This document shows positions 3,206 through 31,939 of a stretch of 32,000 bases of DNA, piece by piece. Source of the stretch: Pseudidiomarina andamanensis (GTDB taxonomy: Bacteria > Pseudomonadota > Gammaproteobacteria > Enterobacterales > Alteromonadaceae); NCBI RefSeq assembly GCF_009734345.1, contig NZ_CP032551.1, forward strand, positions 1,230,001 to 1,262,000, given 5' to 3'. The first letter of the stretch is position 1; each line of letters begins with the position of its first letter. The notes beneath the pieces are model-generated. The model did no database searches and was not told where the DNA came from. It was given only the letters and a program-made list of their open reading frames with translations. Position numbers and translations under genes: made by a program.

Positions 3206-4792
3206 TTAGTCTTGTTCTGCAGCAGTTAACGCAGCTTCAACCCACTGATACCATTCAGAAGAAGTGTCTGTGCTTGAAACCGCACCTACGTAGTCAACCG
3301 CTTCAAAGAAGCTGTTACCTAAACCACTCAGGTCGTTCGCAGTCACTGTGATATCAGCTGATGACATGTCAGTTGCGAAACCGTCTGAGCCAAATACTGT
3401 TGCGTTACCGCCAAGGCGCGCGTTCACACCACCGTTGTCGAACCATTCTTGACGGCTAGTACCGTCACTGAATAATGCTGCTGACGTGAATTCGTTTTCA
3501 GCAACACAAGCCATCGCTGAGTTGAAGAAGTTCAAATCACCAGCAGTAACACCTAACTCGCCATCACCAGTAAACAAGATGCAGCGGGTATCGTTGGTCG
3601 CAACGTCAGTTTTCACCAATAAGAAGTTATAAAGCTGACCTTGGAAGTTGTCGTCAAACTTCATTGCAGTTGATGGATCGTTGTCACGCGTTGATAAACC
3701 GTCAGTGGTGACAACAGTCACGTTGGCAATGTTTGGACGTGAGGTTGGAGCTTGTGAGTATTCAGCGCCTGAGTTTTTCTCACCGTCAGCTTCGAAGCCG
3801 CCGTTACCCATGAATACGTCAGTTCCGTCAACGTTGACAGTACCGTGTTTAATGTACAAGAACTGTGCATTACCTTGCCAGCCAGCATCGATATCCATTG
3901 AGTCATCTTGGGTGTCAGTGAATACAACGCGTTTCAGGTTTGCTGCGCCACCGAAGAACTCGATACCGTCATCGTAACCTTGGTGAATGTGGATGTACTC
4001 GTAAGAAGAGCCTGAACCTACAGCGTTCAAGGTTAATGAGTTCAAGTCATCACCATCGCCGCCAGCACGTGGGCCTGAACCTGCGTACCAGATTTTTGCA
4101 TAGGCCATAGAGCCGCTGTCATCAGCGTTATCATTACCGCCGTAGTAGCTTACGATACCTTCAGATGCCACGTTACAAGTGCCAGCATCACGCTGTGCAT
4201 CAGTACATTGGTTGGTAATACCTTCACCGTTGATAATAATACCGCCCCAATCCGCAAAACGCGGGCCGTTACCAACCACGTCAAAGCGTGTAAACGCATT
4301 TGCAGAGGTGAAAGTTACCGGCTTATCGAACGTACCAATTGCATTTAATTTTGCGCCTCGAGCAACACGAATGATGGCTTCACCGCTAGTGAATGCCAAC
4401 GTTGCACCTGGCTCAACAGTCATTACTGGGCCATCTTGGTTGATAGTGCATGAGGTGGTGGTGTCACAATCTTCACCAATCAATAATGCGCCATCAAATA
4501 CGTGTACACCACCATCTGGCAATTCAGCGAAGGTAATATCTTCGGTAATTTCAATGTTACGGCTCGCAAACTCAAGGTTGTATTCGCAATCGCGACCATC
4601 AAATGCACCTTGAACACCGTTATAAGTTGCACAAAGGTTATCGTTGCCAGTGCCACCGGTATCGCCACCTGAGCCATTATTCACGACGCTGTTGTCATTC
4701 ACTGTTGGGGTAATTTCGATATCGCCACCACAACCGGCCAATGCCAATGCTGAAGCAACCGCGGTAACTTGGAAAAGAGTTTGCAATTTCAT
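3206..4792 (-). CDS. surface/periplasmic lipoprotein of unknown function, Gly/Asp-rich and possibly a parallel beta-helix, co-transcribed with the TonB receptor
   Basis: Lipobox LALAGC at residues 17-21 and AGGAGA upstream of the ATG. It lies 77 bp upstream of the receptor on the same strand. Repetitive G/D/N-rich segments (GGIIINGEG, DDGIEFFGG, QDDSMDIDAG) suggest a beta-helix, but the fold is only inferred. Confidence 0.7.
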   Translation of the reverse strand: MKLQTLFQVTAVASALALAGCGGDIEITPTVNDNSVVNNGSGGDTGGTGNDNLCATYNGVQGAFDGRDCEYNLEFASRNIEITEDITFAELPDGGVHVFDGALLIGEDCDTTTSCTINQDGPVMTVEPGATLAFTSGEAIIRVARGAKLNAIGTFDKPVTFTSANAFTRFDVVGNGPRFADWGGIIINGEGITNQCTDAQRDAGTCNVASEGIVSYYGGNDNADDSGSMAYAKIWYAGSGPRAGGDGDDLNSLTLNAVGSGSSYEYIHIHQGYDDGIEFFGGAANLKRVVFTDTQDDSMDIDAGWQGNAQFLYIKHGTVNVDGTDVFMGNGGFEADGEKNSGAEYSQAPTSRPNIANVTVVTTDGLSTRDNDPSTAMKFDDNFQGQLYNFLLVKTDVATNDTRCILFTGDGELGVTAGDLNFFNSAMACVAENEFTSAALFSDGTSRQEWFDNGGVNARLGGNATVFGSDGFATDMSSADITVTANDLSGLGNSFFEAVDYVGAVSSTDTSSEWYQWVEAALTAAEQD

Positions 4793-5028: not shown

Positions 5029-6309
5029 GTGCGCTATTTCATTGCTATTGCGGTTGCCATATTGGCCCTGTTGCTGTGGTTTGCACCGGCCGATTCTCAA
5101 ATACGCCTCATTACGTTAAGCAAATCTGATCTTGGATGGACAGTCACGTACCAGCTAAACGAGCCGGTAACGCAATTAGAATTTGTACGCTCACCCAATG
5201 AATCACGCGCTGCTCGCTGGCAACCATTAACCGAGAATATCGAAATTGCTTGGCGTAACGGCTCTGAAGTTATCCGTAGTAAAAATGGCGAAGCGTTTTC
5301 AGAAGCTGCCTTCATTCTTGATGCAACCTACACCACCCTACCCAAAGATTATGCGCCGTTTTCACCCTTTAGTGACGGTGGCATGCTCATTCATACTGCA
5401 CGCTTTTTTGCATGCGCCGACCAGTGTGGTGCAGCCCATCATGAATGGCCGATGGCGGTCAGCTTGACCACAAATGACTATATGTTGGTTGATGGCCAAT
5501 TACGGCTTGGTTTCCATGAGTGGCTCGATAGAGACAGCGGCCGTGCCATTTATATTGGCTCACAACCTCCGGAAACCTTTTCCGCACTGGTTGCGATTAT
5601 CGATCCTGCACTGCCATCTTCATTGCGTCAGGATATGATCACCGAGTTACCGATGATCATGAGTTACTACACCAAACAACTGGGTGCGCTTTCGCAAACG
5701 CCAACCTTGTTCGCCTCATACAGTGATTTTCAGGGAGATTATTACGGGCACCAAGGCGGTGTTCTGCCGCATCAGGTATTTATGCATTGGTATGGCGAGC
5801 AAGCCCTGAAAAACGTTGATGAGCAGAATACGCTTTGGTTCTTTGCCCACGAGATTGCACATTTGTTTCAAGGTGCAGGGTTAAAATACTCAAGCTCAGA
5901 TGAAGCCTGGATTCATGAAGGCGCTGCTGAATTAATGTCGTACCTCTATACCGATACGAAGCTAGCGAAAAGCAATCAACTCGTCCAAGATGCCGTGCGC
6001 AAAGCACAAACCGAATGCGTTGCGTCATGGCCGGCAAGCGAACCTTTTATTAATGTCGGTCGCGTAAACTTTAGAGCACACTACAGCTGTGGCTTGGTCG
6101 CCAACGCTGATCTTCATGCGCAATTACAAGCCAATGGTGTTGGAGCTGGTATTTTTGCACTGTGGGAAACCTACTCAACCATGGTAAGCGACGGTGCGCC
6201 GGCTAACTCCGAGACTTATTTTGCCGCTTTCGAGCAGCTAACGGGTTACGCCTCAATGTCGCTTCGACAATTGATTGATCGGCCAGTATCTGCTTCTATA
6301 GCTCCCTAA
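5029..6309 (+). CDS. secreted or membrane-anchored gluzincin-type zinc metallopeptidase (HExxH-x18-E)
   Basis: GTG start with a hydrophobic N-terminus (MRYFIAIAVAILALLLWFAPADSQ). HEIAHLFQGAGLKYSSSDEAWIHEGAAE matches the M1/MA-clan spacing HExxH + 18 residues + E. Confidence 0.6.
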   Translation: MRYFIAIAVAILALLLWFAPADSQIRLITLSKSDLGWTVTYQLNEPVTQLEFVRSPNESRAARWQPLTENIEIAWRNGSEVIRSKNGEAFSEAAFILDATYTTLPKDYAPFSPFSDGGMLIHTARFFACADQCGAAHHEWPMAVSLTTNDYMLVDGQLRLGFHEWLDRDSGRAIYIGSQPPETFSALVAIIDPALPSSLRQDMITELPMIMSYYTKQLGALSQTPTLFASYSDFQGDYYGHQGGVLPHQVFMHWYGEQALKNVDEQNTLWFFAHEIAHLFQGAGLKYSSSDEAWIHEGAAELMSYLYTDTKLAKSNQLVQDAVRKAQTECVASWPASEPFINVGRVNFRAHYSCGLVANADLHAQLQANGVGAGIFALWETYSTMVSDGAPANSETYFAAFEQLTGYASMSLRQLIDRPVSASIAP

Positions 6310-23875: not shown

Positions 23876-25825
23876 CTACTTGGTCGCTTGACGCTGCTTG
23901 AGAAAGAACACGCTAAACACAATCAGCACAAGCAATTGCGCACCAAGACTCTCCCACGTGGCTGCCATACCGAGCCAGTCGATATTTGACGGAACCGGGA
24001 ATGGGGTTGCGTTTATCCAGCCGGCCTCTTGGAATGCGATCATTGCTTTACCGGCTAACACGAACGCAAGTATCAGCAGCAAGTACGTGGTGTAAGCAAA
24101 AAACTTGGCAATTGGCAGTTTCACGCTAAAGCGTAAGATACCCCACGTGATCATTGCCAATACCACGGCGGCTGCGATAAATCCGCCCCAAACGCTGGTG
24201 TGCTGCGCGCTTTGCGCTTGAGTCAGCAATGACTGATAGAACAGCACGGTTTCAAACACTTCGCGGTACACGGCAATAAAGCTCAACAGCGCAATACCCC
24301 ACAGCGTACCTGCCGCTAAATGAGCATTCAGATTTTGCTTGATGTATTGCTGCCAAGCCTGTGCATTGGTTTTGCTGTGCATCCAAATACCGACATACAC
24401 CAATACCACTGCGGCAAGACCCGCAGCCACACCTTCCATAATCTCGCGACTCGCACCACTAATCGAAATCAGCGACTGCGCCGCCCACCACGTCAAACCG
24501 CCGAGCACAAGCGCAGCAAGCCAGCCCGAATGAACATATTTCACGGCATCGTTTCGTTCAGTGCGACGTAGCACGGTAATCAGCGCCAGCACCACCAACA
24601 GCGCTTCCAAACCTTCACGTAGCAAAATCACAAAACTTGCTGTGGCTAATGCCGTATTTGAAAGCTGTTGCTCATTCATGGTGTCTTGAGCACGTTCCAG
24701 AGCCGCTAAGATGTCACTAATCGCGGCGCTCACTTGTGCTTGCTGATCAGGCGTTGCGATAATGCGGCGCAAGTTCATCATTTGCGCTTCAATGGCTTTG
24801 GTTTGAGCTGCATCGTAGGCACTCAAACCATTCTCTATTAACTCAAAGCCATCTAAGTAAGCACTGACTGCGAGGTGGTTCGCACGCTTTAAGTCACCTG
24901 CTTTGTAGGCTTCTTCCGCCGCTTGTAAGCGCGCTTTTGCCACCGCGAATGGTGATATTTCAGCTTGAAAAAGTTGCTGTGGGTTCGCCCGTAAAATATT
25001 GACCAAATTCGCTTGAGAACTCGGTAGCTCAGCGCGTAATTGGGCTGGGCTCGTATTCACCATTTGCTGTAAATCAATCACATCCATGCTTGCCTGTCGC
25101 GCAACCTCAGTGCCATGTTGAAACGCGAGAGAGCCCACATAAAATGCCAGCGACCAACGCTGCTGCTCGGTCAGGTTGGTAAACGCCATCATGGCGGTGT
25201 CGTCAATGCCCTTCGTAATGGCATCGTATAGACCAAGCAACGAGCGATTTTCAGCGCGCTCTAAATCAGTAAAGTTAGTTGGGGCAGGTTCTAGGTTTTG
25301 CCCTGCTGGACCATCACCCTGACCTTGCTGACCATGACATGCACTACATTGCGCTTGATATATTTCTTTAGTTTGTGCGGTTGGCAACAATACTTCGGGG
25401 AGTTCGACTTTCGGTAATTGCTGCAAGATTTGTGCGCGCAATTGTGAGGTTGCACCGCGCACTTCAGCCAAATTCGCTTTACTCATGATTAATTCGCGTA
25501 GCTGTTGCGCCGGCTGGATTAACGTTTGTAGTGCTGGATTGTCAGTTGCTAGCGTGTTGATATTGCGCAGAATAATTGCCGAAAACTCTTCCATTTCGGC
25601 ATATTCGCCAGCGTTAACCACCTCACCGTTGGCGACCGCCTCGCTGTAATCCACCCCAATGTATTCCACCAACTGCGCAATTTGGCGCATGTATTCTTGT
25701 TGGAGTTCTGGTTGATTGGCTGTTTGATTCGCTAGGGACTGGGCTTGCGTCTGCGGGCTCAATACTGCCAACGTGGCAAAAACAACAACCGCCAACGCGG
25801 CACGAGTAATGGCTTGAAGCGTCAT
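23876..25825 (-). CDS. cytochrome c domain fused to an FTR1-family high-affinity iron permease
   Basis: Signal peptide, a CSACHG heme-c motif, then a polytopic C-terminal half with two RExxE motifs (REGLEAL, REVFETV). Confidence 0.85.
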   Translation of the reverse strand: MTLQAITRAALAVVVFATLAVLSPQTQAQSLANQTANQPELQQEYMRQIAQLVEYIGVDYSEAVANGEVVNAGEYAEMEEFSAIILRNINTLATDNPALQTLIQPAQQLRELIMSKANLAEVRGATSQLRAQILQQLPKVELPEVLLPTAQTKEIYQAQCSACHGQQGQGDGPAGQNLEPAPTNFTDLERAENRSLLGLYDAITKGIDDTAMMAFTNLTEQQRWSLAFYVGSLAFQHGTEVARQASMDVIDLQQMVNTSPAQLRAELPSSQANLVNILRANPQQLFQAEISPFAVAKARLQAAEEAYKAGDLKRANHLAVSAYLDGFELIENGLSAYDAAQTKAIEAQMMNLRRIIATPDQQAQVSAAISDILAALERAQDTMNEQQLSNTALATASFVILLREGLEALLVVLALITVLRRTERNDAVKYVHSGWLAALVLGGLTWWAAQSLISISGASREIMEGVAAGLAAVVLVYVGIWMHSKTNAQAWQQYIKQNLNAHLAAGTLWGIALLSFIAVYREVFETVLFYQSLLTQAQSAQHTSVWGGFIAAAVVLAMITWGILRFSVKLPIAKFFAYTTYLLLILAFVLAGKAMIAFQEAGWINATPFPVPSNIDWLGMAATWESLGAQLLVLIVFSVFFLKQRQATK

Positions 25826-25897
25826 GAGATTCGCTCGTCAATTTGAGAAAATTAGAAAGATAGAAACAAAGTGCATTTTATGATGAGCGATGTTACT

Positions 25898-25926
25898 ACT
25901 AATGCGAATGATTCGCAATAATGATG
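25898..25926. promoter_or_regulatory. Fur-box-like palindrome upstream of the FTR1 gene
   Basis: ACTAATGCGAATGATTCGCAATAATGAT contains the near-palindrome GCGAATGATTCGC. By eye it matches about 12 of 19 positions of GATAATGATAATCATTATC. It lies 73-100 nt upstream of the ATG at 25825. Confidence 0.35.
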
Positions 25927-25944
25927 GTGGGTATTTTTAGCCTA

Positions 25945-26013
25945 TTCCTACATGCGATTTAAAGACCACGCTGCCATCGTTTTGGGTAAATACCTTTAAA
26001 TATGATGTTAATA
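25945..26013 (-). repeat. candidate terminal attC site (69 nt) with a degenerate R' box
   Basis: Geometry is 7-5-8...8-5-7. The plus strand reads TTCCTAC ATGCG ATTTAAAG ... CTTTAAAT ATGAT GTTAATA. The L-box pairing is a perfect 8 bp, but R' reads GTA rather than GTT on the cassette strand. Confidence 0.3.
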
Positions 26014-26135
26014 AGTTCCTTCTTATTGAGGTGCCCTTTTCTGAACTTAATGCCAAAGAAAATGAAAGAAGATAACGCACAAAACGCGTATAGCAATAAG
26101 CAAAGAACTAAAAAACACAGCACTTCCTGAATTTT

Positions 26136-26618
26136 TTATTTGCTATAAACCGTTTTCGGCTTACCTAATCCCGCCCACAATTCAGTCAGAACCGATTGCC
26201 AAACTACTTTTTCTTCTGAACCGACCGAGAGCATTTCTGTTTCAAACTGGTCGAGGTCTATAAACGTCGAACAGCCGCCTGTTGCGTGGAGTCCATCTTT
26301 AGATACGTGCGAAAACACGATAAATCTATTACCAATAGTTGGGGCTGTTGTACCACAAGAATTCTTTTCAGTATCTGTTTTAATATATACGAAGTCAGTT
26401 ACGGCTTTATCTTTCCATACTTCTATGACTTGCATTTTTGTTTTGTAAAATGAAGTATCCCAATCTCCCGGAATTATCTCTGTATCGATAGCGATACCCG
26501 TGAAAATTGCGTCATGCTCCTGGATTACTTCTTCGAAAGTCTTTGCTTCACTGAAACAAGAGCATCCGAATGCAGTTATTGGGGAAAGCATCAGAGTAAA
26601 TAACATAACCCTTAACAT
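26136..26618 (-). CDS. secreted TIMP/NTR-like (OB-fold) protein, candidate metalloprotease inhibitor
   Basis: ATG 26618 has AAGGAG 9 nt upstream. After the signal peptide MLRVMLFTLMLSPITAFG the mature N-terminus is CSC. There are exactly four Cys, placed as in the TIMP N-domain (C1, C3, ..NSCG.., ..GGCS..). FVYIKT...SCG...FIVF...DGLHATGGCSTF parallels TIMP-1 FVYTP..SVCG..FLIAG..DGLLHITTCSF. Confidence 0.6.
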   Translation of the reverse strand: MLRVMLFTLMLSPITAFGCSCFSEAKTFEEVIQEHDAIFTGIAIDTEIIPGDWDTSFYKTKMQVIEVWKDKAVTDFVYIKTDTEKNSCGTTAPTIGNRFIVFSHVSKDGLHATGGCSTFIDLDQFETEMLSVGSEEKVVWQSVLTELWAGLGKPKTVYSK

Positions 26619-26742
26619 GAACCAGACTCCTTCAAACGATGATGTCCAGTTACTTATATCAGCGGTCATACTTCCACACCATCAAAAAATTGCGTAGCTT
26701 CTGCCTCAAAGGTATTCATGTATTTTTTGATTTAGGCTGCAA

Positions 26743-26810
26743 CGTTAACGTTAAACCGAGTGCTGATGCGACCTTCGCGATGGTTGAAGAGTATGGTTAG
26801 TTGGTTAAAG
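26743..26810 (-). repeat. candidate attC site (68 nt)
   Basis: The plus strand reads CGTTAAC GTTA AACC ... ATGCGA cct TCGC[G]AT ... GGTT AGTTG GTTAAAG. R boxes are 6/7 complementary, the L pairing is 4 bp, and an inner 6-bp stem has a bulged G on the expected arm. Confidence 0.35.
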
Positions 26811-26846
26811 ATGATTACGGAAATTGGTGCAGGATAAAAACTTAAT

Positions 26847-26974
26847 ATTTAACTTGGAAGACGCTTTGTCCGCTGTGTGCCAGGAGCGGACGTTGACGCT
26901 GAAATAAGCGGCGGCCCGACAAGGGCGTCCGGTGGAGGCCGCCGGCCGGAACGAACTTAATTGACTGGTTAACT
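26847..26974 (-). repeat. long irregular attC-like element with a GC-rich core; 3' boundary uncertain (26835-26853)
   Basis: The R'' box AGTTAAC (plus gttaact, 26968-26974) is 7/7 complementary to the 5' junction of the SRPBCC cassette and overlaps its stop codon. A GTTAAAT core site lies at 26847-26853. The interior holds several alternative GC-rich stems. Confidence 0.4.
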
Positions 26975-27427
26975 GGCGCTGCTACCATAATAAGACCTTA
27001 GCACCTGATGACGGTGCTTAAAGATGAACCGGTAAACAGGTGCCAGAACATATGCCAACACGGGCAACCTACACTGAAATTCGACGGTATCGGTGACCCG
27101 GCATGATGTCCCGTTTCTACTAATGTCCCGTCGATGGTGCCAGAGCCTATTGGTTAAAGAGCTCGACGCCTCCGCAAAACCACTTTGGCGATCAATGGAT
27201 TGAAAGAAGAACGTGTGCCGATCAATGGGAAAAATGCCGAAAAGGAGTATCCAGCTAGAGAAGAGCACGTTACCCGTAGGCCATTCAAAGATTGGCTTGC
27301 TTGACCATTCTGAGGGAACCGTCATGCGGATGAAAGGGTTCAACTCCGTATTCACGCCCTTCATGGTGAGCAATCCATCGATATCTTCCGGACTGATTTT
27401 AAGGTTACTCGATACTTCAAATTTCAC
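26969..27427 (-). CDS. SRPBCC (START/cyclase-dehydrase-like) ligand-binding family protein
   Basis: GTG start with GGAAGG 5 nt upstream. The C-terminal pattern ...RLWHHRRDI..NGTSCRVTDTVEF......VYRFIFKHRHQVL resembles the SRPBCC W-H-H ... D-V-Y/F ... F-x-R-R pattern. Confidence 0.5.
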   Translation of the reverse strand: MKFEVSSNLKISPEDIDGLLTMKGVNTELNPFIRMTVPSEWSSKPIFEWPTGNVLFSSWILLFGIFPIDRHTFFFQSIDRQSGFAEASSSLTNRLWHHRRDISRNGTSCRVTDTVEFQCRLPVLAYVLAPVYRFIFKHRHQVLRSYYGSSAS

Positions 27428-27443
27428 TGGTGCCTTCCGTGAC

Positions 27444-27513
27444 AGTTAACGTAGAAGTCACCGGCGCTGCGCAGCTTTATCGCGCAGCGTCCGAGTGGAC
27501 TGCCGGGTTAGAA
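27444..27513 (-). repeat. integron attC recombination site (70 nt), canonical architecture
   Basis: The plus strand (the predicted bottom strand) reads AGTTAAC GTAGA AGTCACCGGCGCTGCGC agctttatc GCGCAGCG[T]CCG[A]GT[G]GACT GCCGG GTTAGAA. It has 7-nt R boxes, 5+5 nt of unpaired spacer, and a 17-bp stem with single-base bulges T, A and G, all on the 3' arm. Confidence 0.7.
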
Positions 27514-27537
27514 GTGCTCGGAAAAACTCAACCGCCA

Positions 27538-27930
27538 CTATATTGAACACTTATTTCTTGCCTTCTTGTATTTGCCAAATTTCTCGACTCCTTTCTCAAG
27601 GGTTCGCTCCGCAGTGTATTCTCTGTCACCCATGAATTCGAGAAACCCTTTGATCGTCATTTCCATCGACTCACCCAGGTTTGCCTTGGCTTCTTCTAGG
27701 CATTTGCCTACGACAACCTCATCAAGATCACGTTTTATTGACTGTAAATTTGCAACTTGGGAACTTAGTGCAACTCGGGCAGTTGCTCCAGCAAGTTGGG
27801 TGCCATCAAGCCAACGCTGTTCAATCTTCTTGATTTCAGTCATCCCTTTATCTTTTGGCTCAATCAGTTTTTCGCATCCGACTAAGGCAATTGTAATAAA
27901 GGGAATCGCCAACGCTGTTTTGTATTTCAT
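27538..27930 (-). CDS. small lipoprotein of unknown function (130 aa)
   Basis: Lipobox IALVGC at residues 14-19. GGGAGA lies 5 nt upstream of the ATG. The mature part is predicted helical, and no family was recognised. Confidence 0.7.
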   Translation of the reverse strand: MKYKTALAIPFITIALVGCEKLIEPKDKGMTEIKKIEQRWLDGTQLAGATARVALSSQVANLQSIKRDLDEVVVGKCLEEAKANLGESMEMTIKGFLEFMGDREYTAERTLEKGVEKFGKYKKARNKCSI

Positions 27931-27964
27931 GAAATCTCCCTGTGGTGAAAATTAAGCACAGAAC

Positions 27965-28148
27965 TTCTAACATTTATATATTGTGCGTGCGCACTTCGGA
28001 ACTAGTTTAATTGATAGCTTTAGGTTCTTAAGTTACTGATTAAGCGGGCCTTACCACCTTTAAGAGCTCCGAGTTAGCAATGGCAATTTGAGCATACTCA
28101 GTTACACTCTACCGAGCGCACAATATCTGACCTTTATTTTTTGTTATG
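27965..28148 (-). repeat. 184-bp imperfect palindrome, either an oversized attC-like site or a MITE-like element
   Basis: ATATTGTGCG (27979-27988) pairs with CGCACAATAT (28117-28126), and interrupted complementarity continues inward for about 45 nt per arm. The flanks are TTCTAAC (27965-27971) and GTTATGT (28142-28148). Confidence 0.3.
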
Positions 28149-28347
28149 TCATTGACAGTATACGACTTAAATACACAACACAACAACAAAACGTGCAATA
28201 TCGCCGAAGTGAATGTGCCGTGTATGGCTAGCGACATCCACATTTACTAATAACGCGACGGCTAGTCACCAACTGGATTAGGCAGAAGGTCCGCTCCTCG
28301 CTCAAAGCGGAAGCAATCCCAAGAACTTGGTCATATTTGAATCTCTT

Positions 28348-28599
28348 TTAGCAGGCAGCGTTCCGCTGATTCTTCTGCTCTAAACTCAGCCGTTCTGCCA
28401 ACCAAACTTTAATGAGTGATTGCCGCGTCACGCCAATACGAGCAGCTTCTTGATCTAAAGACTCGACAATCCACAGTGGAAAATCGACATTAATTCGCTT
28501 AGATTCCTGATTTACTCGCCGTGCCGTTGAGAGATCGAGATCGTCAATAATATCTTCCTTATTGGCATCAAATTTTTCTTCAAATTTCTTGGTTTTCAT
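28348..28599 (-). CDS. brnA: BrnA-family antitoxin (ribbon-helix-helix/CopG-like)
   Basis: KRINVDFPLWIVESLDQEAARIGVTRQSLIKVWLAERL is typical of BrnA. ATG 28599 has AAGAGG upstream, and the gene overlaps the end of brnT by 20 nt. Confidence 0.8.
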   Translation of the reverse strand: MKTKKFEEKFDANKEDIIDDLDLSTARRVNQESKRINVDFPLWIVESLDQEAARIGVTRQSLIKVWLAERLSLEQKNQRNAAC

Positions 28600-28876
28600 A
28601 AAGCTCAACCTCTTTCTTTCGTGAGCGTCTCACCGAAATAATGCGGATTTTCTCGCCGCGAAACGTAATGATTGCTGACCAATGCTTTCTTCCAATCATG
28701 CCGATGACTATGTATCGCAATTCTTCAGTGTATTTTGTCTTTATTTCTAATAGGTTAGGGTCATCCCAAAGTTTCTGGCCACATTCGAAATCAATGCCAT
28801 GCTTTAATAAATTCGACAAACTTTTTTCGCGATCATAGTCGAAACTATGAGTATAATGTATTCCTTTTTTACTCAC
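28580..28876 (-). CDS. brnT: BrnT-family (DUF497) ribonuclease toxin
   Basis: FDYDREKSLSNLLKHGIDFECGQKLWDDPN...YIVIG......IRIISVRRSRKKEVELYE matches the BrnT pattern. GTG start with AAGGAG 9 nt upstream. Confidence 0.8.
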   Translation of the reverse strand: MSKKGIHYTHSFDYDREKSLSNLLKHGIDFECGQKLWDDPNLLEIKTKYTEELRYIVIGMIGRKHWSAIITFRGEKIRIISVRRSRKKEVELYENQEI

Positions 28877-28921
28877 TTCGCAAATCTCCTTATTTGCTGA
28901 CGTGAGAACATTAGCATTGGT

Positions 28922-28941
28922 TTTGAGTGCATTAGCTCAAA
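28922..28941. promoter_or_regulatory. inverted repeat upstream of brnT, candidate BrnA operator
   Basis: TTTGAG-N8-CTCAAA lies 46-65 nt upstream of the brnT start. RHH antitoxins typically autoregulate through such repeats. Confidence 0.3.
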
Positions 28942-29003
28942 GCTATAATTGCTCCCAGCTCTCTAAGATTTCTCTGTTTCAAAAATACGACTTTTCAACG
29001 CTC

Positions 29004-29033
29004 ATAAAAAAGGCGAGCTAAAAAGCTCGCCTT
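29004..29033 (-). terminator. rho-independent terminator of gcvP
   Basis: The minus strand reads AGGCGAGCT-TTTT-AGCTCGCCT followed by TTTTTT. It lies 21 nt downstream of the gcvP stop at 29054. Confidence 0.8.
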
Positions 29034-29053
29034 CTTCATCACATCAAAACCAA

Positions 29054-31939
29054 TTAACGATAAGTATCAACCGCCGGGCAACTACACATCAAATTCCGGT
29101 CGCCATACACGTCGTCAATGCGGTTCACGCTTGGCCAGAACTTGTTCGCCTTAACGGCAGCTACAGGGTATGCAGCAAGTTCGCGGCTATATGGGCGTTC
29201 CCAGTTCGCATCAACAATGTCTGCCAACGTGTGTGGTGCGTTGTGCAGTGGGTTGTTGTCTTCTGGCCACTCGCCGGCTTCAACGCGTTTCGCTTCTTCA
29301 CGAATGTTGATCATGGCTTCAATGAAGCGGTCTAGCTCAGCTTTCGATTCAGACTCGGTTGGCTCAACCATTAATGTGCCCGCTACTGGGAAGCTCATGG
29401 TTGGGCTGTGGAAGCCGTAGTCTTGCAAGCGTTTTGCCACGTCCATCTCGGTCACGCCACAAGCGTCTTTTAATGGGCGCAAGTCGATAATACATTCGTG
29501 CGCAACGCGGTCGTTACGGCCTTTGTACAGAATTGGGTAGTGCTTGCTTAAGTGCTTCGCAATGTAGTTGGCGTTCATAATAGCCACTTCCGTTGCTTCG
29601 CGCAGGCCACGTGAACCCATCATCACAATGTACATCCACGAAATTGGCAAAATGCTCGCGCTACCAAATGGTGCTGCAGATACCGCGCCGTTTTCAGCAT
29701 CGGTGTCCGCAATTTTCACCACACTGTGGTTCGGTAAGAATGGTGCTAAGTGCTTCTTCACGCCAATTGGGCCCATACCAGGACCACCACCGCCGTGCGG
29801 AATACAGAAGGTTTTGTGCAAGTTTAAGTGCGATACGTCGGCACCAATGTAACCTGGTGAGGTGACGCCCACTTGCGCGTTCATATTGGCACCATCAAGG
29901 TAAACCTGACCACCGTGCGCGTGCACAATGTCACAGATGTCTTTAATGCCTTCTTCGTAAACGCCGTGCGTTGACGGGTAAGTCACCATAATGCATGACA
30001 AGTTGTCGCCTGCTTCTTCAGCTTTCGCTTTCAAGTCAGCCAAATCAACGTTACCGTTCTTGTCACAGTCAACCACTACCACGTTCATGCTCATCATTTG
30101 CGCTGAAGCTGGGTTGGTACCGTGTGCTGAGCTTGGAATTAAGCAGATGTTGCGATGCGCATCGCCACGGCTTTGGTGATATTTCTGAATGGCTAACAAG
30201 CCAGCGTATTCGCCTTGTGCACCTGAGTTTGGTTGCATCGACATCACGTCGTAGCCAGTGATATCCACTAACCACTCAGACAACGTGCTGAGCAATTCAG
30301 CGTACCCTTGCGCTTGGTCTGCTGGGCAGAACGGATGCAACTGACCGAATTCCGGCCAAGTGACTGGAATCATTTCAGCGGTGGCGTTGAGCTTCATGGT
30401 ACATGAGCCCAACGAGATCATGCTGTGGTTCAATGACAAGTCTTTGTTTTCAAGCTGCTTGATGTAACGCAGCATTTCGGTTTCAGAGTGGTAGCTGTTG
30501 AATACTGGGTGTTCCAAAATCGCGCTTTCACGGCGAAGTGCTGCCGGAATTGATTCAATTTCACCAGAAGCCACACGTGAATCTAACACGTCAATTTCTA
30601 AACCGTGATCAGCACCGAATAACGCTGCGAACAAGGCGTCAACGTCTTGGCGGGTTTTCGCTTCATCTAAGCTCACGCCGAACTGGCCGTTGCCGTCAAC
30701 GCGCAAGTTAATTTCAGCTTTGTCTGCGCGCGCTAATACGTCAGATGCGTCGCCTTCAAGTTTGAAGGTTAAGGTATCGAACCAATGGTTGTTCAATACT
30801 TTCACGCCCTTCTCTTTTAAGCCAAGCGCGACGATGTCGGTCAAACGGTTAATGCGTGATGCGATGGTTTTCAGGCCTTGTGGGCCGTGGTAGACCGCGT
30901 AGAACGATGCCATGTTGGCAAGCAATACCTGCGCAGTACAGATGTTTGAGTTCGCTTTCTCACGACGGATGTGCTGTTCACGAGTCTGCATAGCCATACG
31001 CAATGCTTGGTTGTCACGGCTGTCTTTTGACACACCGATGATACGACCTGGCAGTGAACGCTTGTATTTGTCACGGGTTGCAAAGAATGCAGCATGCGGG
31101 CCGCCGTAACCCATTGGTACGCCGAAACGTTGTGCTGAACCCAGCACCATGTCAGCGCCCATTTCGCCTGGCGATTTCAACAACACAAGGCTCATGATAT
31201 CTGCGGCAACGGCAACAATACCTTTGTTCGCTTGAATATCAGCAATCAGCTTTTCAATGTTGTGTATTTCACCGTTGCGGTCTGGATATTGCAACAACGC
31301 ACCGAATACGTCGTGGTTATCGGCTTCGCGCGCTGGTCCAACAATTACGTCAAAACCAAACTGCTCGGCGCGCGTTTTCACCACATCAATCGTTTGTGGG
31401 AACACGTTGTCAGCAACGTAGTACGTGTTTGATTTGCTCTTGCTCACACGCTTCGACATGGCCATGGCTTCGGCTGCTGCCGTTGCTTCGTCAAGTAATG
31501 ACGCGCTCGCCAGTTCAAGGCCAGTCAAATCCATGGTCATTTGTTGGAAGTTCAAAATGGCTTCTAAACGACCCTGAGCAATTTCTGGCTGGTACGGCGT
31601 GTACGCGGTGTACCAACCTGGGTTCTCAAGTACGTTACGCAAAATAACGTTCGGTACTAGGGTGTCGTAGTAACCCATACCGATAAATGACTTGTACACT
31701 TTGTTCTTGCTCGCGATACCTTTGAGTTTGGCAAGCGCTTCACGCTCGTTCATTGGTTCGCCAACAGACAAAAATGGGTCGCGACGAATCGCGCCAGGAA
31801 CGGTGTCACGCGTTAGCACTTCGAGTGAGCTAACACCCAACTCAGCCAACATCGCCTTGGTTTCATCAGCACTTGGGCCAATGTGGCGGGCAATGAATTC
31901 ACCGTGATTTTCTAACTGCTTCAGCGTAGTAGTCGTCAT
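29054..31939 (-). CDS. gcvP: glycine dehydrogenase (decarboxylating), glycine cleavage system P protein
   Basis: A 961-aa single-chain P protein. It has the PLP-lysine region [18 protein letters not shown] and an N-terminal [14 protein letters not shown]. Confidence 0.95.

Follow-up and report, generated by a model that had tools for sequence, protein, structure and literature searches.

The window analysed here is a stretch of 32,000 nucleotides of Pseudidiomarina andamanensis (contig NZ_CP032551.1, positions 1,230,001 to 1,262,000), and all coordinates given below are positions in this window unless a locus of another genome is named. It is core chromosome, with aceBA, aceK, gcvP and the gene of a TonB-dependent receptor among its genes. 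On the minus strand, inside a small island that varies between strains, lies a gene for a predicted exported protein that resembles the vertebrate tissue inhibitors of metalloproteinases (TIMPs). The gene, its ribosome-binding site and the parts of the encoded protein are listed below; residues of the mature protein are counted from Cys1, and a slash within a signal-peptide junction marks the predicted cut.

26136 to 26618, minus strand: TIMP-like coding sequence, 160 codons and a TAA stop (based on the list of open reading frames, translation, homologues and the ratio of nonsynonymous to synonymous substitution, dN/dS)
26627 to 26633, minus strand: ribosome-binding site GAAGGAG, 8 nt 5' of the ATG at 26618
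26565 to 26618, minus strand: signal peptide MLRVMLFTLMLSPITAFG, residues 1 to 18, with a predicted signal peptidase I (SPase I) cut AFG/C
26139 to 26564, minus strand: mature protein of 142 residues, 15.8 kDa, isoelectric point 4.7; predicted single domain with the oligonucleotide/oligosaccharide-binding (OB) fold of the TIMP/netrin (NTR) type, with five beta strands and C-terminal helices (based on AlphaFold and Foldseek)
26556 to 26564, minus strand: codons TGC TCT TGT of Cys1-Ser2-Cys3, the predicted N-terminal reactive motif
26352 to 26360, minus strand: codons of Ser-Cys70-Gly (SCG), the counterpart of V-C70-G in the C-D connector of TIMPs
26271 to 26273, minus strand: codon of Cys98, the counterpart of Cys99 of TIMP-1 and predicted partner of Cys3

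The translated open reading frame (ORF) starts with the ATG at 26618-26616 and stops with the TAA at 26138-26136. The ribosome-binding site is conserved along with the 5' leader of the cassettes that carry the homologues (TTCAAAGGAGTTTGGT). An alternative start at the in-frame ATG at 26669, which would yield a protein of 177 residues, was rejected: the added stretch is found in no homologue and, as comparison of the loci showed, is bordered by what remains of another gene on one side and by the conserved ribosome-binding site on the other. A protein search yielded 14 close homologues (identity 55-98%) from Pseudoalteromonas, from metagenome-assembled genomes (MAGs) of Idiomarina and Colwellia, and from marine metagenomes; none of them carries a Pfam domain or an informative name, and all 12 that are full length start with MLR or MLK and measure at most 160 residues. 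The best genome match is a Pseudidiomarina MAG (81%), and a contig of a sister strain (locus L005) encodes a copy that is 98% identical. Four extra loci came from a scan of genomes and only two from a scan of metagenomes; no copy was found by tblastn in plasmid or phage collections. Pairwise dN/dS values among eight orthologous coding sequences (Nei-Gojobori) were 0.16-0.34, two near-identical pairs of orthologues being uninformative. The TIMP-like ORF is a genuine gene under purifying selection.

The precursor begins with MLRVMLFTLMLSPITAFG/CSCFSE..., so that the mature protein starts with Cys-Ser-Cys after a signal peptide of 18 residues. It contains exactly four cysteines, at residues 19, 21, 88 and 116 of the precursor, which are residues 1, 3, 70 and 98 of the mature protein; the corresponding pattern in TIMP-1 is 1, 3, 70 and 99. 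A preliminary description of the sequence had reported the signal peptide followed by Cys-Ser-Cys and the four TIMP-like cysteines, and both hold; the register that it proposed along the TIMP sequence (CSC; DAIFTG; VWK; KNSCG; FIVFS; GGCS) is also the one obtained from hmmsearch against TIMP-2 and from hhalign. It had further made the assignment depend on conservation of the cysteines among homologues, and these are indeed conserved in close as well as remote ones. All 15 aligned sequences of the close family share C19, C21, C88 and the G-C-S-C junction without exception, and C116 is present in every sequence that extends to that position. Cys1-Ser2-Cys3, invariant in the close family, aligns with Cys1-Ser2-Cys3 of TIMP-2; C88 (mature Cys70) is invariant in the alignment of remote relatives (A2) and its SCG motif aligns with VCG of TIMP-2. 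In TIMPs the disulfides Cys1-Cys70 and Cys3-Cys99 tether the N-terminal segment. The cysteine positions retained in the bacterial proteins are those of these two disulfides, and thus represent an inhibitor-specific feature. By analogy, the bacterial protein would be expected to pair Cys1 with Cys70 and Cys3 with Cys98.

The fold was predicted with AlphaFold2 from two different inputs. An alignment of 15 sequences yielded a predicted local distance difference test score (pLDDT) of 76.7 and a predicted TM-score (pTM) of 0.73; for the mature sequence with an alignment of 90 sequences these values were 83.8 and 0.79. Both models consist of five long beta-strands followed by helices. The top Foldseek matches in the PDB were TIMP-1, TIMP-2, the N-terminal domain of TIMP-3 (N-TIMP-3), the NtA domain of agrin, the NTR domains of PCOLCE and meteorin, and complement C345C, with E-values of 3e-5 to 1e-3 for the best of them; the top 22 matches at E≤1e-3 were all TIMP, NtA or PCOLCE NTR structures. 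N-TIMP-3 was matched with a TM-score of 0.65 (normalised to the target) and a root-mean-square deviation of 3.2 Å over 108 columns. The matched PDB chains, among them the TIMPs, are about 11-18% identical to the protein in sequence. The OB/NTR fold, the lack of which the preliminary description had named as a ground for dropping its proposal, is thus present in the predicted structure, with TIMPs, agrin NtA and NTR/C345C domains as the top matches. NTR modules as defined in Pfam (PF01759) have six conserved cysteines (three disulfides), a YLLLG-like hydrophobic motif and an OB-fold. The present protein combines the OB fold and an F-[IL]-V-F-[AS] motif with four cysteines, and it does not match PF01759 directly; a weak match was obtained for three of the 137 aligned relatives that are described below.

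Homology to TIMPs was assessed with profiles. When 1.84 billion representative sequences were searched with a hidden Markov model of the close family, 359 remote bacterial proteins (clusters at 50% identity) were retrieved at E≤1e-3, and 136 of these together with the window protein made up the alignment of 137 remote relatives. The Pfam TIMP family (PF00965) was matched by 67 of the 137 (best E-value 2.3e-10), compared with three for Pfam NTR and two for NtA. When ten were tested singly, four (P0166, P0194, P0219 and P0250) exceeded the PF00965 gathering score of 23.1 bits, scoring 26.9-36.6 bits, and the intermediate relatives P0017, P0018 and P0021 scored 15.8 bits and aligned from position 2 of the profile. 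A comparison by hhalign of the close family with 26 bacterial proteins that match Pfam TIMP gave a probability of 98.5% and an E-value of 1.6e-15 over 132 columns, in a register that aligned all four cysteines, the SCG motif and the FLVFA or YLVYA motif. The profile of the whole superfamily matched PDB sequences of TIMP-2 (E 9e-14) and of TIMP-1 and TIMP-3 (about 1e-8), and its alignment to TIMP-2 begins exactly at Cys1 of the mature inhibitor. Overall, the data make it very probable that the protein has the TIMP/NTR fold and shares ancestry with this group. The superfamily spans Bacillota, Bacteroidota, Planctomycetota and Gammaproteobacteria. With at least 359 clusters, some of them automatically annotated, TIMP-like proteins are not as exceptional in bacteria as the preliminary description had assumed.

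The junction between signal peptide and mature protein was compared across the superfamily. A C-x-C motif stands directly behind an N-terminal hydrophobic signal sequence in 135 of the 137 relatives. Among these 135, position -1 is Ala in 111, Gly in 11 and Ser in 9 (together 131), position -2 is mostly Phe, Leu, Tyr or Gln, and position -3 is Ala, Val, Ser or Thr in 122 and Leu in only four; at residue 2, 115 have Ser and 9 have Thr (124 of 135), the choice seen in TIMPs. The close family has the junction [AVT]-[FIL]-G/C. The lipobox [LVI]-[ASTVI]-[GAS]-C is found neither in the close family nor as a feature of the superfamily. The residues before the Cys thus follow an AxA-like pattern and not the L-[AS]-[GA]-C of a lipobox, which points to a cut by SPase I and hence to a free N-terminal Cys. 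The preliminary description had left the choice between the two types of processing to a later check, and the superfamily statistics favour SPase I, at AFG/CSC. The TIMP-like domain is always located at the extreme N-terminus of the mature protein, also in wall-anchored members and in multidomain members that carry an LPXTG motif, a dockerin, a tail of the type IX secretion system or CarboxypepD_reg-like domains. This constant placement suggests that the free alpha-amino group of Cys1 is needed for function, as it is in TIMPs; a generic NTR binding module would give no reason to expect it, and it is the main argument for an inhibitor.

On the basis of these similarities, the protein may act as follows. 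After export, SPase I would remove 18 residues behind Ala-Phe-Gly and leave a free Cys1-Ser2-Cys3 at the start of a single TIMP/NTR-type OB domain, presumably a five-stranded beta-barrel packed by the C-terminal helices. Disulfides 1-70 and 3-98, if formed as in TIMPs, would pin the N-terminal segment on the Ser-Cys70-Gly connector and so produce a rigid wedge, which could enter the active-site cleft of a zinc endopeptidase. There the alpha-amino and carbonyl groups of Cys1 would chelate the catalytic zinc, with Ser2 directed toward the S1' pocket, and the outcome would be a tight-binding metalloprotease inhibitor resembling N-TIMP. With no partner protease encoded next to the gene, the target is probably met in trans, and might be one of the cell's own secreted proteases or a protease of competitors, predators or hosts. 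We would give even chances to this full mechanism of an exported N-TIMP-like inhibitor.

Several observations weigh against inhibition by a TIMP-type mechanism. The protein alone has no direct sequence match in Pfam (even at E≤10), NCBIfam or the PDB: the one PDB match from phmmer, to an S-layer protein, was at the level of chance (E 0.08), the close-family profile matched nothing in the PDB, and PADLOC and PHROGs scans of the protein returned nothing. The hhalign comparison of the close family with TIMP-2 singly was not significant (E 0.12), with the register being right, and the homology is thus transitive. The first ∼10 residues of the mature protein were modelled with only moderate confidence (pLDDT 58). 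The third disulfide of N-TIMP (Cys13-Cys124) and the entire C-terminal domain of TIMPs are absent. Many domains with the NTR fold (netrin, agrin NtA, PCOLCE, C345C) do not inhibit proteases. Neither in the window nor in the loci of the close homologues or of four remote relatives does a metalloprotease gene lie next to the TIMP-like gene; the four remote loci contain no secreted neighbour with an HExxH motif, and two HExxH-type strings that do occur in them belong to proteins without a signal peptide that are apparently cytoplasmic. Finally, the literature searched turned up no experiments with a C-x-C TIMP from bacteria.

Some of these points would equally suit a secreted or periplasmic NTR-fold module that inhibits nothing and instead binds another protein, a glycan or a ligand of the matrix or cell surface, in the manner of agrin NtA, netrins, sFRPs and the NTR domain of PCOLCE. 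Agrin NtA, the NTR domains of PCOLCE and meteorin and C345C are matched with Foldseek scores similar to those of TIMPs, no context examined contains a protease partner, and the presence of the domain on wall-anchored and multidomain proteins in some relatives suits binding. NTR modules that do not inhibit proteases carry this domain internally, and Cys1 consequently has no free alpha-amino group there. If the free N-terminus had no importance, it would be difficult to account for the position of C-[ST]-C at the signal-peptide cut in 135 of the 137 relatives. The profiles match TIMP (67 members) far better than NTR (three) or NtA (two). A non-inhibitory binding module is for these reasons an unlikely explanation, although the best of those that compete with the inhibitor.

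Two genes for putative peptidases were considered as possible partners of the TIMP-like protein and rejected. The first, proposed in the preliminary description as an orphan gluzincin, is an ORF of 426 residues at 5029-6309 on the plus strand, with an N-terminal hydrophobic segment and a HEIAH...(18)...EGAAE motif. It has no Pfam match and only a weak NCBIfam match to flagellinolysin (24.9 bits versus a cutoff of 205), and possibly encodes an orphan gluzincin-like peptidase. It lies 20 kb from the TIMP-like gene among core metabolic genes of the chromosome; we agree with the preliminary description that no link between the two is apparent. The second is found in Pseudoalteromonas sp. SG45-1 (locus L001, 6599-7186), where the cassette right after the TIMP-like one encodes a secreted M23 zinc peptidase of 195 residues. 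This is a separate cassette with its own attC site and it is absent from the other loci, so that the adjacency is probably coincidental.

A different fate of the exported protein would follow if the Cys of AFGC were diacylglycerol-modified and the precursor cut by signal peptidase II, in which case the TIMP-like domain would be anchored to the membrane. The Cys follows straight after the hydrophobic region, and A-F-G-C fits a permissive lipobox of the PROSITE type. Position -3 of the close family is nevertheless Ala, Val or Thr and position -2 is bulky (Phe, Ile or Leu), the superfamily obeys the AxA rule, and a canonical lipobox in the same island looks different (LVGC, in the ORF at 27538-27930). 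Tim of Listeria monocytogenes, the sole bacterial TIMP-like protein that has been studied, does have a lipobox, LTAC (PMC8235301). We regard lipidation as improbable here, and the same holds for its corollaries, namely activity only after proteolytic release, as in Listeria Tim, or a structural role. Cleavage by SPase I to give a free Cys1, as judged from the residues around the junction, remains the favoured processing.

The homologues in other genera are integron cassettes. In L001 there is an integron integrase gene (TIGR02249, 491 bits versus a cutoff of 265), and the TIMP-like gene occupies the second cassette behind it. Elements of ∼100 nt flank the gene in L001, L003 and L008 and align as attC sites with invariant TAAC...GTTA ends; their consensus comprises 31 base pairs, 18 of which show compensatory changes, with the R''/R' and L''/L' pairing of such sites. 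A covariance model built from these flanking elements, which underlies all attC scores given here, showed the gene to be flanked by attC sites at either end in L001, L002, L003, L004/L019, L008 and L009, where the cassette's own attC scores 87-111 bits. In L012 (Colwellia) the gene is cut by the end of the contig and only the upstream attC is present (74 bits). The cassette of the homologues consists of a single promoterless ORF with a G/TTA core site (the slash here marking the junction) and its own attC of ∼100 nt, and the neighbouring cassettes differ in every locus. The cassettes of L001 (5941-6582) and of Psychrosphaera aquimarina (L009, 4941-5582) are 97.8% identical in nucleotide sequence over the 644-bp cassette, with no synonymous differences in the coding part, and this identity extends nowhere else in 10 kb. 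Such an identity restricted to the cassette indicates very recent transfer between Pseudoalteromonas and Psychrosphaera. The TIMP-like gene is a promoterless cassette that moves between marine Alteromonadales. Genes for an IS110-family transposase (NF033542, 153.6 bits) are present in two of these otherwise unrelated arrays (L001 7227-8489 and L003 2722-3984); both follow a truncated start of an attC of near-identical sequence (GCCTAACAACACGCCCTGAGGTGGAC...), and the elements look like attC-targeting insertion sequences of the IS1111 type.

In the window the situation is less complete. The features of the island that bear on its history are listed here.

25826 to 29053, minus strand: strain-variable island of 3.2 kb, between the FTR1/cytochrome c gene (23876-25825) and gcvP (29054-31939)
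27444 to 27513, minus strand: attC-like site of 25.9 bits that separates the lipoprotein ORF from the ORF of 152 residues; TCTAAC ... GTTAAC
26891 to 26974, minus strand: degenerate attC-like site of 12.6 bits at the end of the cassette with the 152-residue ORF; R'' AGTTAAC, R' GTCAAC
26716 to 26788, minus strand: remnant of the 3' end of a gene for a HigA-like helix-turn-helix (HTH) antitoxin, the trace of a rearrangement a short way upstream of the TIMP-like gene; homology with L005 resumes at 26788

From the gcvP side, the island contains BrnT/BrnA genes, a conserved non-coding stretch, the lipoprotein ORF, an attC site, the 152-residue ORF, an attC-like site and the TIMP-like gene, and the minus strand encodes all of its small genes. 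For the attC-like site at 27444-27513 the E-value is 4e-5 over all sources and 2e-6 for the region alone. The degenerate site at 26891-26974, which lies ∼270 bp upstream of the TIMP-like gene, has an E-value of 0.029 for the 3.3-kb region and of 0.56 for all sources, and it resembles the attC that precedes the gene in L006 and L011. No attC was detected within the 310 bp 3' of the TIMP-like gene (best score 8 bits), the 200 nt downstream of it show no unusual structure (fold z = -0.9), and no integrase was found among the ORFs of the 32-kb window scanned with Pfam and NCBIfam. Having no integrase, the island resembles the cassette arrays known as clusters of attC sites lacking integron-integrases (CALIN). 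In this genome, the TIMP-like gene has no attC of its own and stands last in a small array that has decayed and lacks an integrase. The description of the gene as cassette-borne is thus correct for Pseudoalteromonas, Psychrosphaera and Colwellia, with attC sites and, in Pseudoalteromonas sp. SG45-1, an integron integrase; for the window it is borne out only by the attC-like sites further upstream, the integrase and the 3' attC being missing. The sister-strain contig L005 shares the sequences 28685-28286 and 26788-23800 with the window, and other genes replace the segment 26789-28285; an intact HigA-like gene is present there at 1114-1416 and matches PF21716 and HTH_3.

The position of the gene 310 bp upstream of the FTR1-cytochrome c gene (23876-25825), in the same direction and also in L005, could suggest a periplasmic metal or redox protein that uses its C-S-C motif as a partner of this iron permease. 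In all other genera the FTR1 adjacency is absent and the gene is found in cassette arrays among unrelated neighbours, the island between gcvP and the FTR1 gene is itself strain-variable, and the four cysteines align with the disulfide cysteines of TIMPs. The adjacency was rejected as a functional clue because it is confined to this species, and a role in metal or redox chemistry is very improbable. That the ORF is a chance frame or a decaying pseudogene within the degraded array is scarcely credible: the cassette has lost its attC in the window, a rearrangement scar lies upstream and a consensus scan found no sigma-70-like promoter on the strand of the gene, but the frame is intact, the ribosome-binding site is conserved, all key residues are kept, the sister strain encodes a 98%-identical protein and dN/dS versus the relatives is 0.16-0.22.

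The inhibitor proposed here can be compared with several known systems. With the vertebrate TIMPs (PF00965; MEROPS I35; PDB 2tmp, 1uea and 3cki), which are also its best structural matches, the protein has in common a signal peptide followed by Cys1-[Ser/Thr]2-Cys3, cysteines at about 70 and 99, an x-C-G connector, a hydrophobic Y/F-L/I-V/I-x motif, and an OB-fold beta-barrel with terminal helices. It differs in lacking the C-terminal domain with its three disulfides and Cys13-Cys124, and in this sense resembles an isolated N-TIMP, and in being bacterial and encoded (in the homologues) by an integron cassette. The serralysin inhibitors (Pseudomonas APRin and Erwinia Inh; MEROPS I38) are small periplasmic proteins whose free N-terminus coordinates the zinc of a metzincin. 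They insert N-terminal residues into the active site in a way that is similar to the proposed mechanism; their fold, however, is an unrelated eight-stranded barrel, they have no C-x-C motif, and they are encoded beside their protease. Some bacterial proteins of the same superfamily were annotated automatically in UniRef, such as 'Tissue inhibitor of metalloproteinase' of Planococcus halotolerans and 'NTR domain-containing protein' of Winogradskyella luteola. These relatives, among them P0186 and P0219, likewise have a signal peptide, C-S-C and four cysteines and are 20-30% identical to the present family. P0219, P0166, P0194 and P0250 reach the Pfam TIMP threshold whereas the present family does not, and in the loci examined they are chromosomal, in contrast to a family that travels as an integron cassette. 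No experimental characterisation of these annotated proteins was found in the literature searched. Chromosomal integron cassettes of Vibrionales and Alteromonadales share with those of the homologues the single ORF with an attC, the IntI integrase and nearby IS110 elements; the window copy differs from them in lacking a 3' attC and any integrase within 32 kb.

The one related paper found describes Listeria monocytogenes Tim (LMRG_00714), which is bacterial, associated with a mobile element and predicted to have a TIMP-like fold, and is the partner of the metzincin Mtz (PMC8235301). Tim is a lipoprotein, through its LTAC lipobox, and its TIMP-like part is freed by a cut ∼50 residues into the protein, made by the partner metzincin (PMC8235301). 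Its gene is always paired with that of the metzincin, whereas the present protein has no adjacent protease and has C-S-C at an SPase I-type site. The authors of that study, who also mention the serralysin inhibitors, had come across no previous report of bacterial proteins resembling TIMPs (PMC8235301). In the literature searched TIMPs are otherwise treated as metazoan regulators of extracellular-matrix proteases, and two papers on their evolution leave bacterial TIMPs unmentioned (PMC4860685, PMC10755359).

The bacterial TIMP-like superfamily is already known to annotation pipelines, and the present family is a divergent branch of it in Alteromonadales that is missed by Pfam and NCBIfam, annotated as 'hypothetical' and mobile by way of integrons. 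It follows that a domain of the canonical C-S-C, N-TIMP type exists in bacteria, in a superfamily of several hundred clusters and under purifying selection, and that its gene is traded as an integron cassette in Alteromonadales. Were the protein to inhibit proteases, a function would be assigned to a family of 'hypothetical' cassette proteins, protease inhibition would be added to the known adaptive cargo of integrons, and a minimal TIMP scaffold of 142 residues with two disulfides would become available to protein engineers and to studies of how the TIMP/NTR module arose. If it is no inhibitor, it is still a clean example of a bacterial NTR-fold domain. A true mobile bacterial TIMP with a free-Cys1 wedge, shuttled by integrons as a shield against the zinc proteases of competitors, predators and animal hosts, is a tentative proposal that falls somewhat short of an even chance. 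In that case, the occurrence of the superfamily across bacterial phyla would imply that a mechanism held to be metazoan is ancient in bacteria or has been exchanged between domains of life. Demonstration of inhibition through the free Cys1 would considerably raise the interest of the family.

The other parts of the island and of the window were inspected as well. Two ORFs precede the TIMP-like gene, neither with a match in the family libraries: one for a lipoprotein of 130 residues with an LVGC lipobox (27538-27930, minus strand), followed by the attC-like site at 27444-27513, and one for a protein of 152 residues (26969-27427, minus strand), the stop codon of which overlaps the attC-like site at 26891-26974. 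Outside the island, an ORF of 528 residues beside the gene of the TonB-dependent receptor (3206-4792, minus strand) has no Pfam or NCBIfam match. A weak match to the attC model at 112-197 on the minus strand (22.1 bits, E 6e-4) is an imperfect palindrome just upstream of the gene for tRNA-Phe (204-279); it probably represents a terminator or a hairpin that scores by chance, and not an attC. The end of the island nearest gcvP carries two overlapping genes, for a BrnT toxin (PF04365, 82.8 bits) and a BrnA/CopG-like antitoxin (28348-28876, minus strand). Cassette arrays typically carry toxin-antitoxin pairs of this kind.

Between BrnA and the lipoprotein ORF lies a non-coding stretch of ∼340 bp (27968-28311), which has no Rfam match and is 77-82% conserved in L006 (1274-1599) and L011 (4153-4504), where it precedes a different gene of 90 residues; it could be a promoter or leader, a small RNA or the end of a mobile element. 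Two hairpins of the type TCCGCT-N10-AGCGGA, at 26869-26894 and 28286-28311, form a 26-nt inverted repeat with 85% complementarity. The latter starts exactly at the breakpoint with L005 (28286) and the former is located ∼80-105 nt from the breakpoint at 26788. The same hairpin is also present after the R' box of an attC in L006 and L011.

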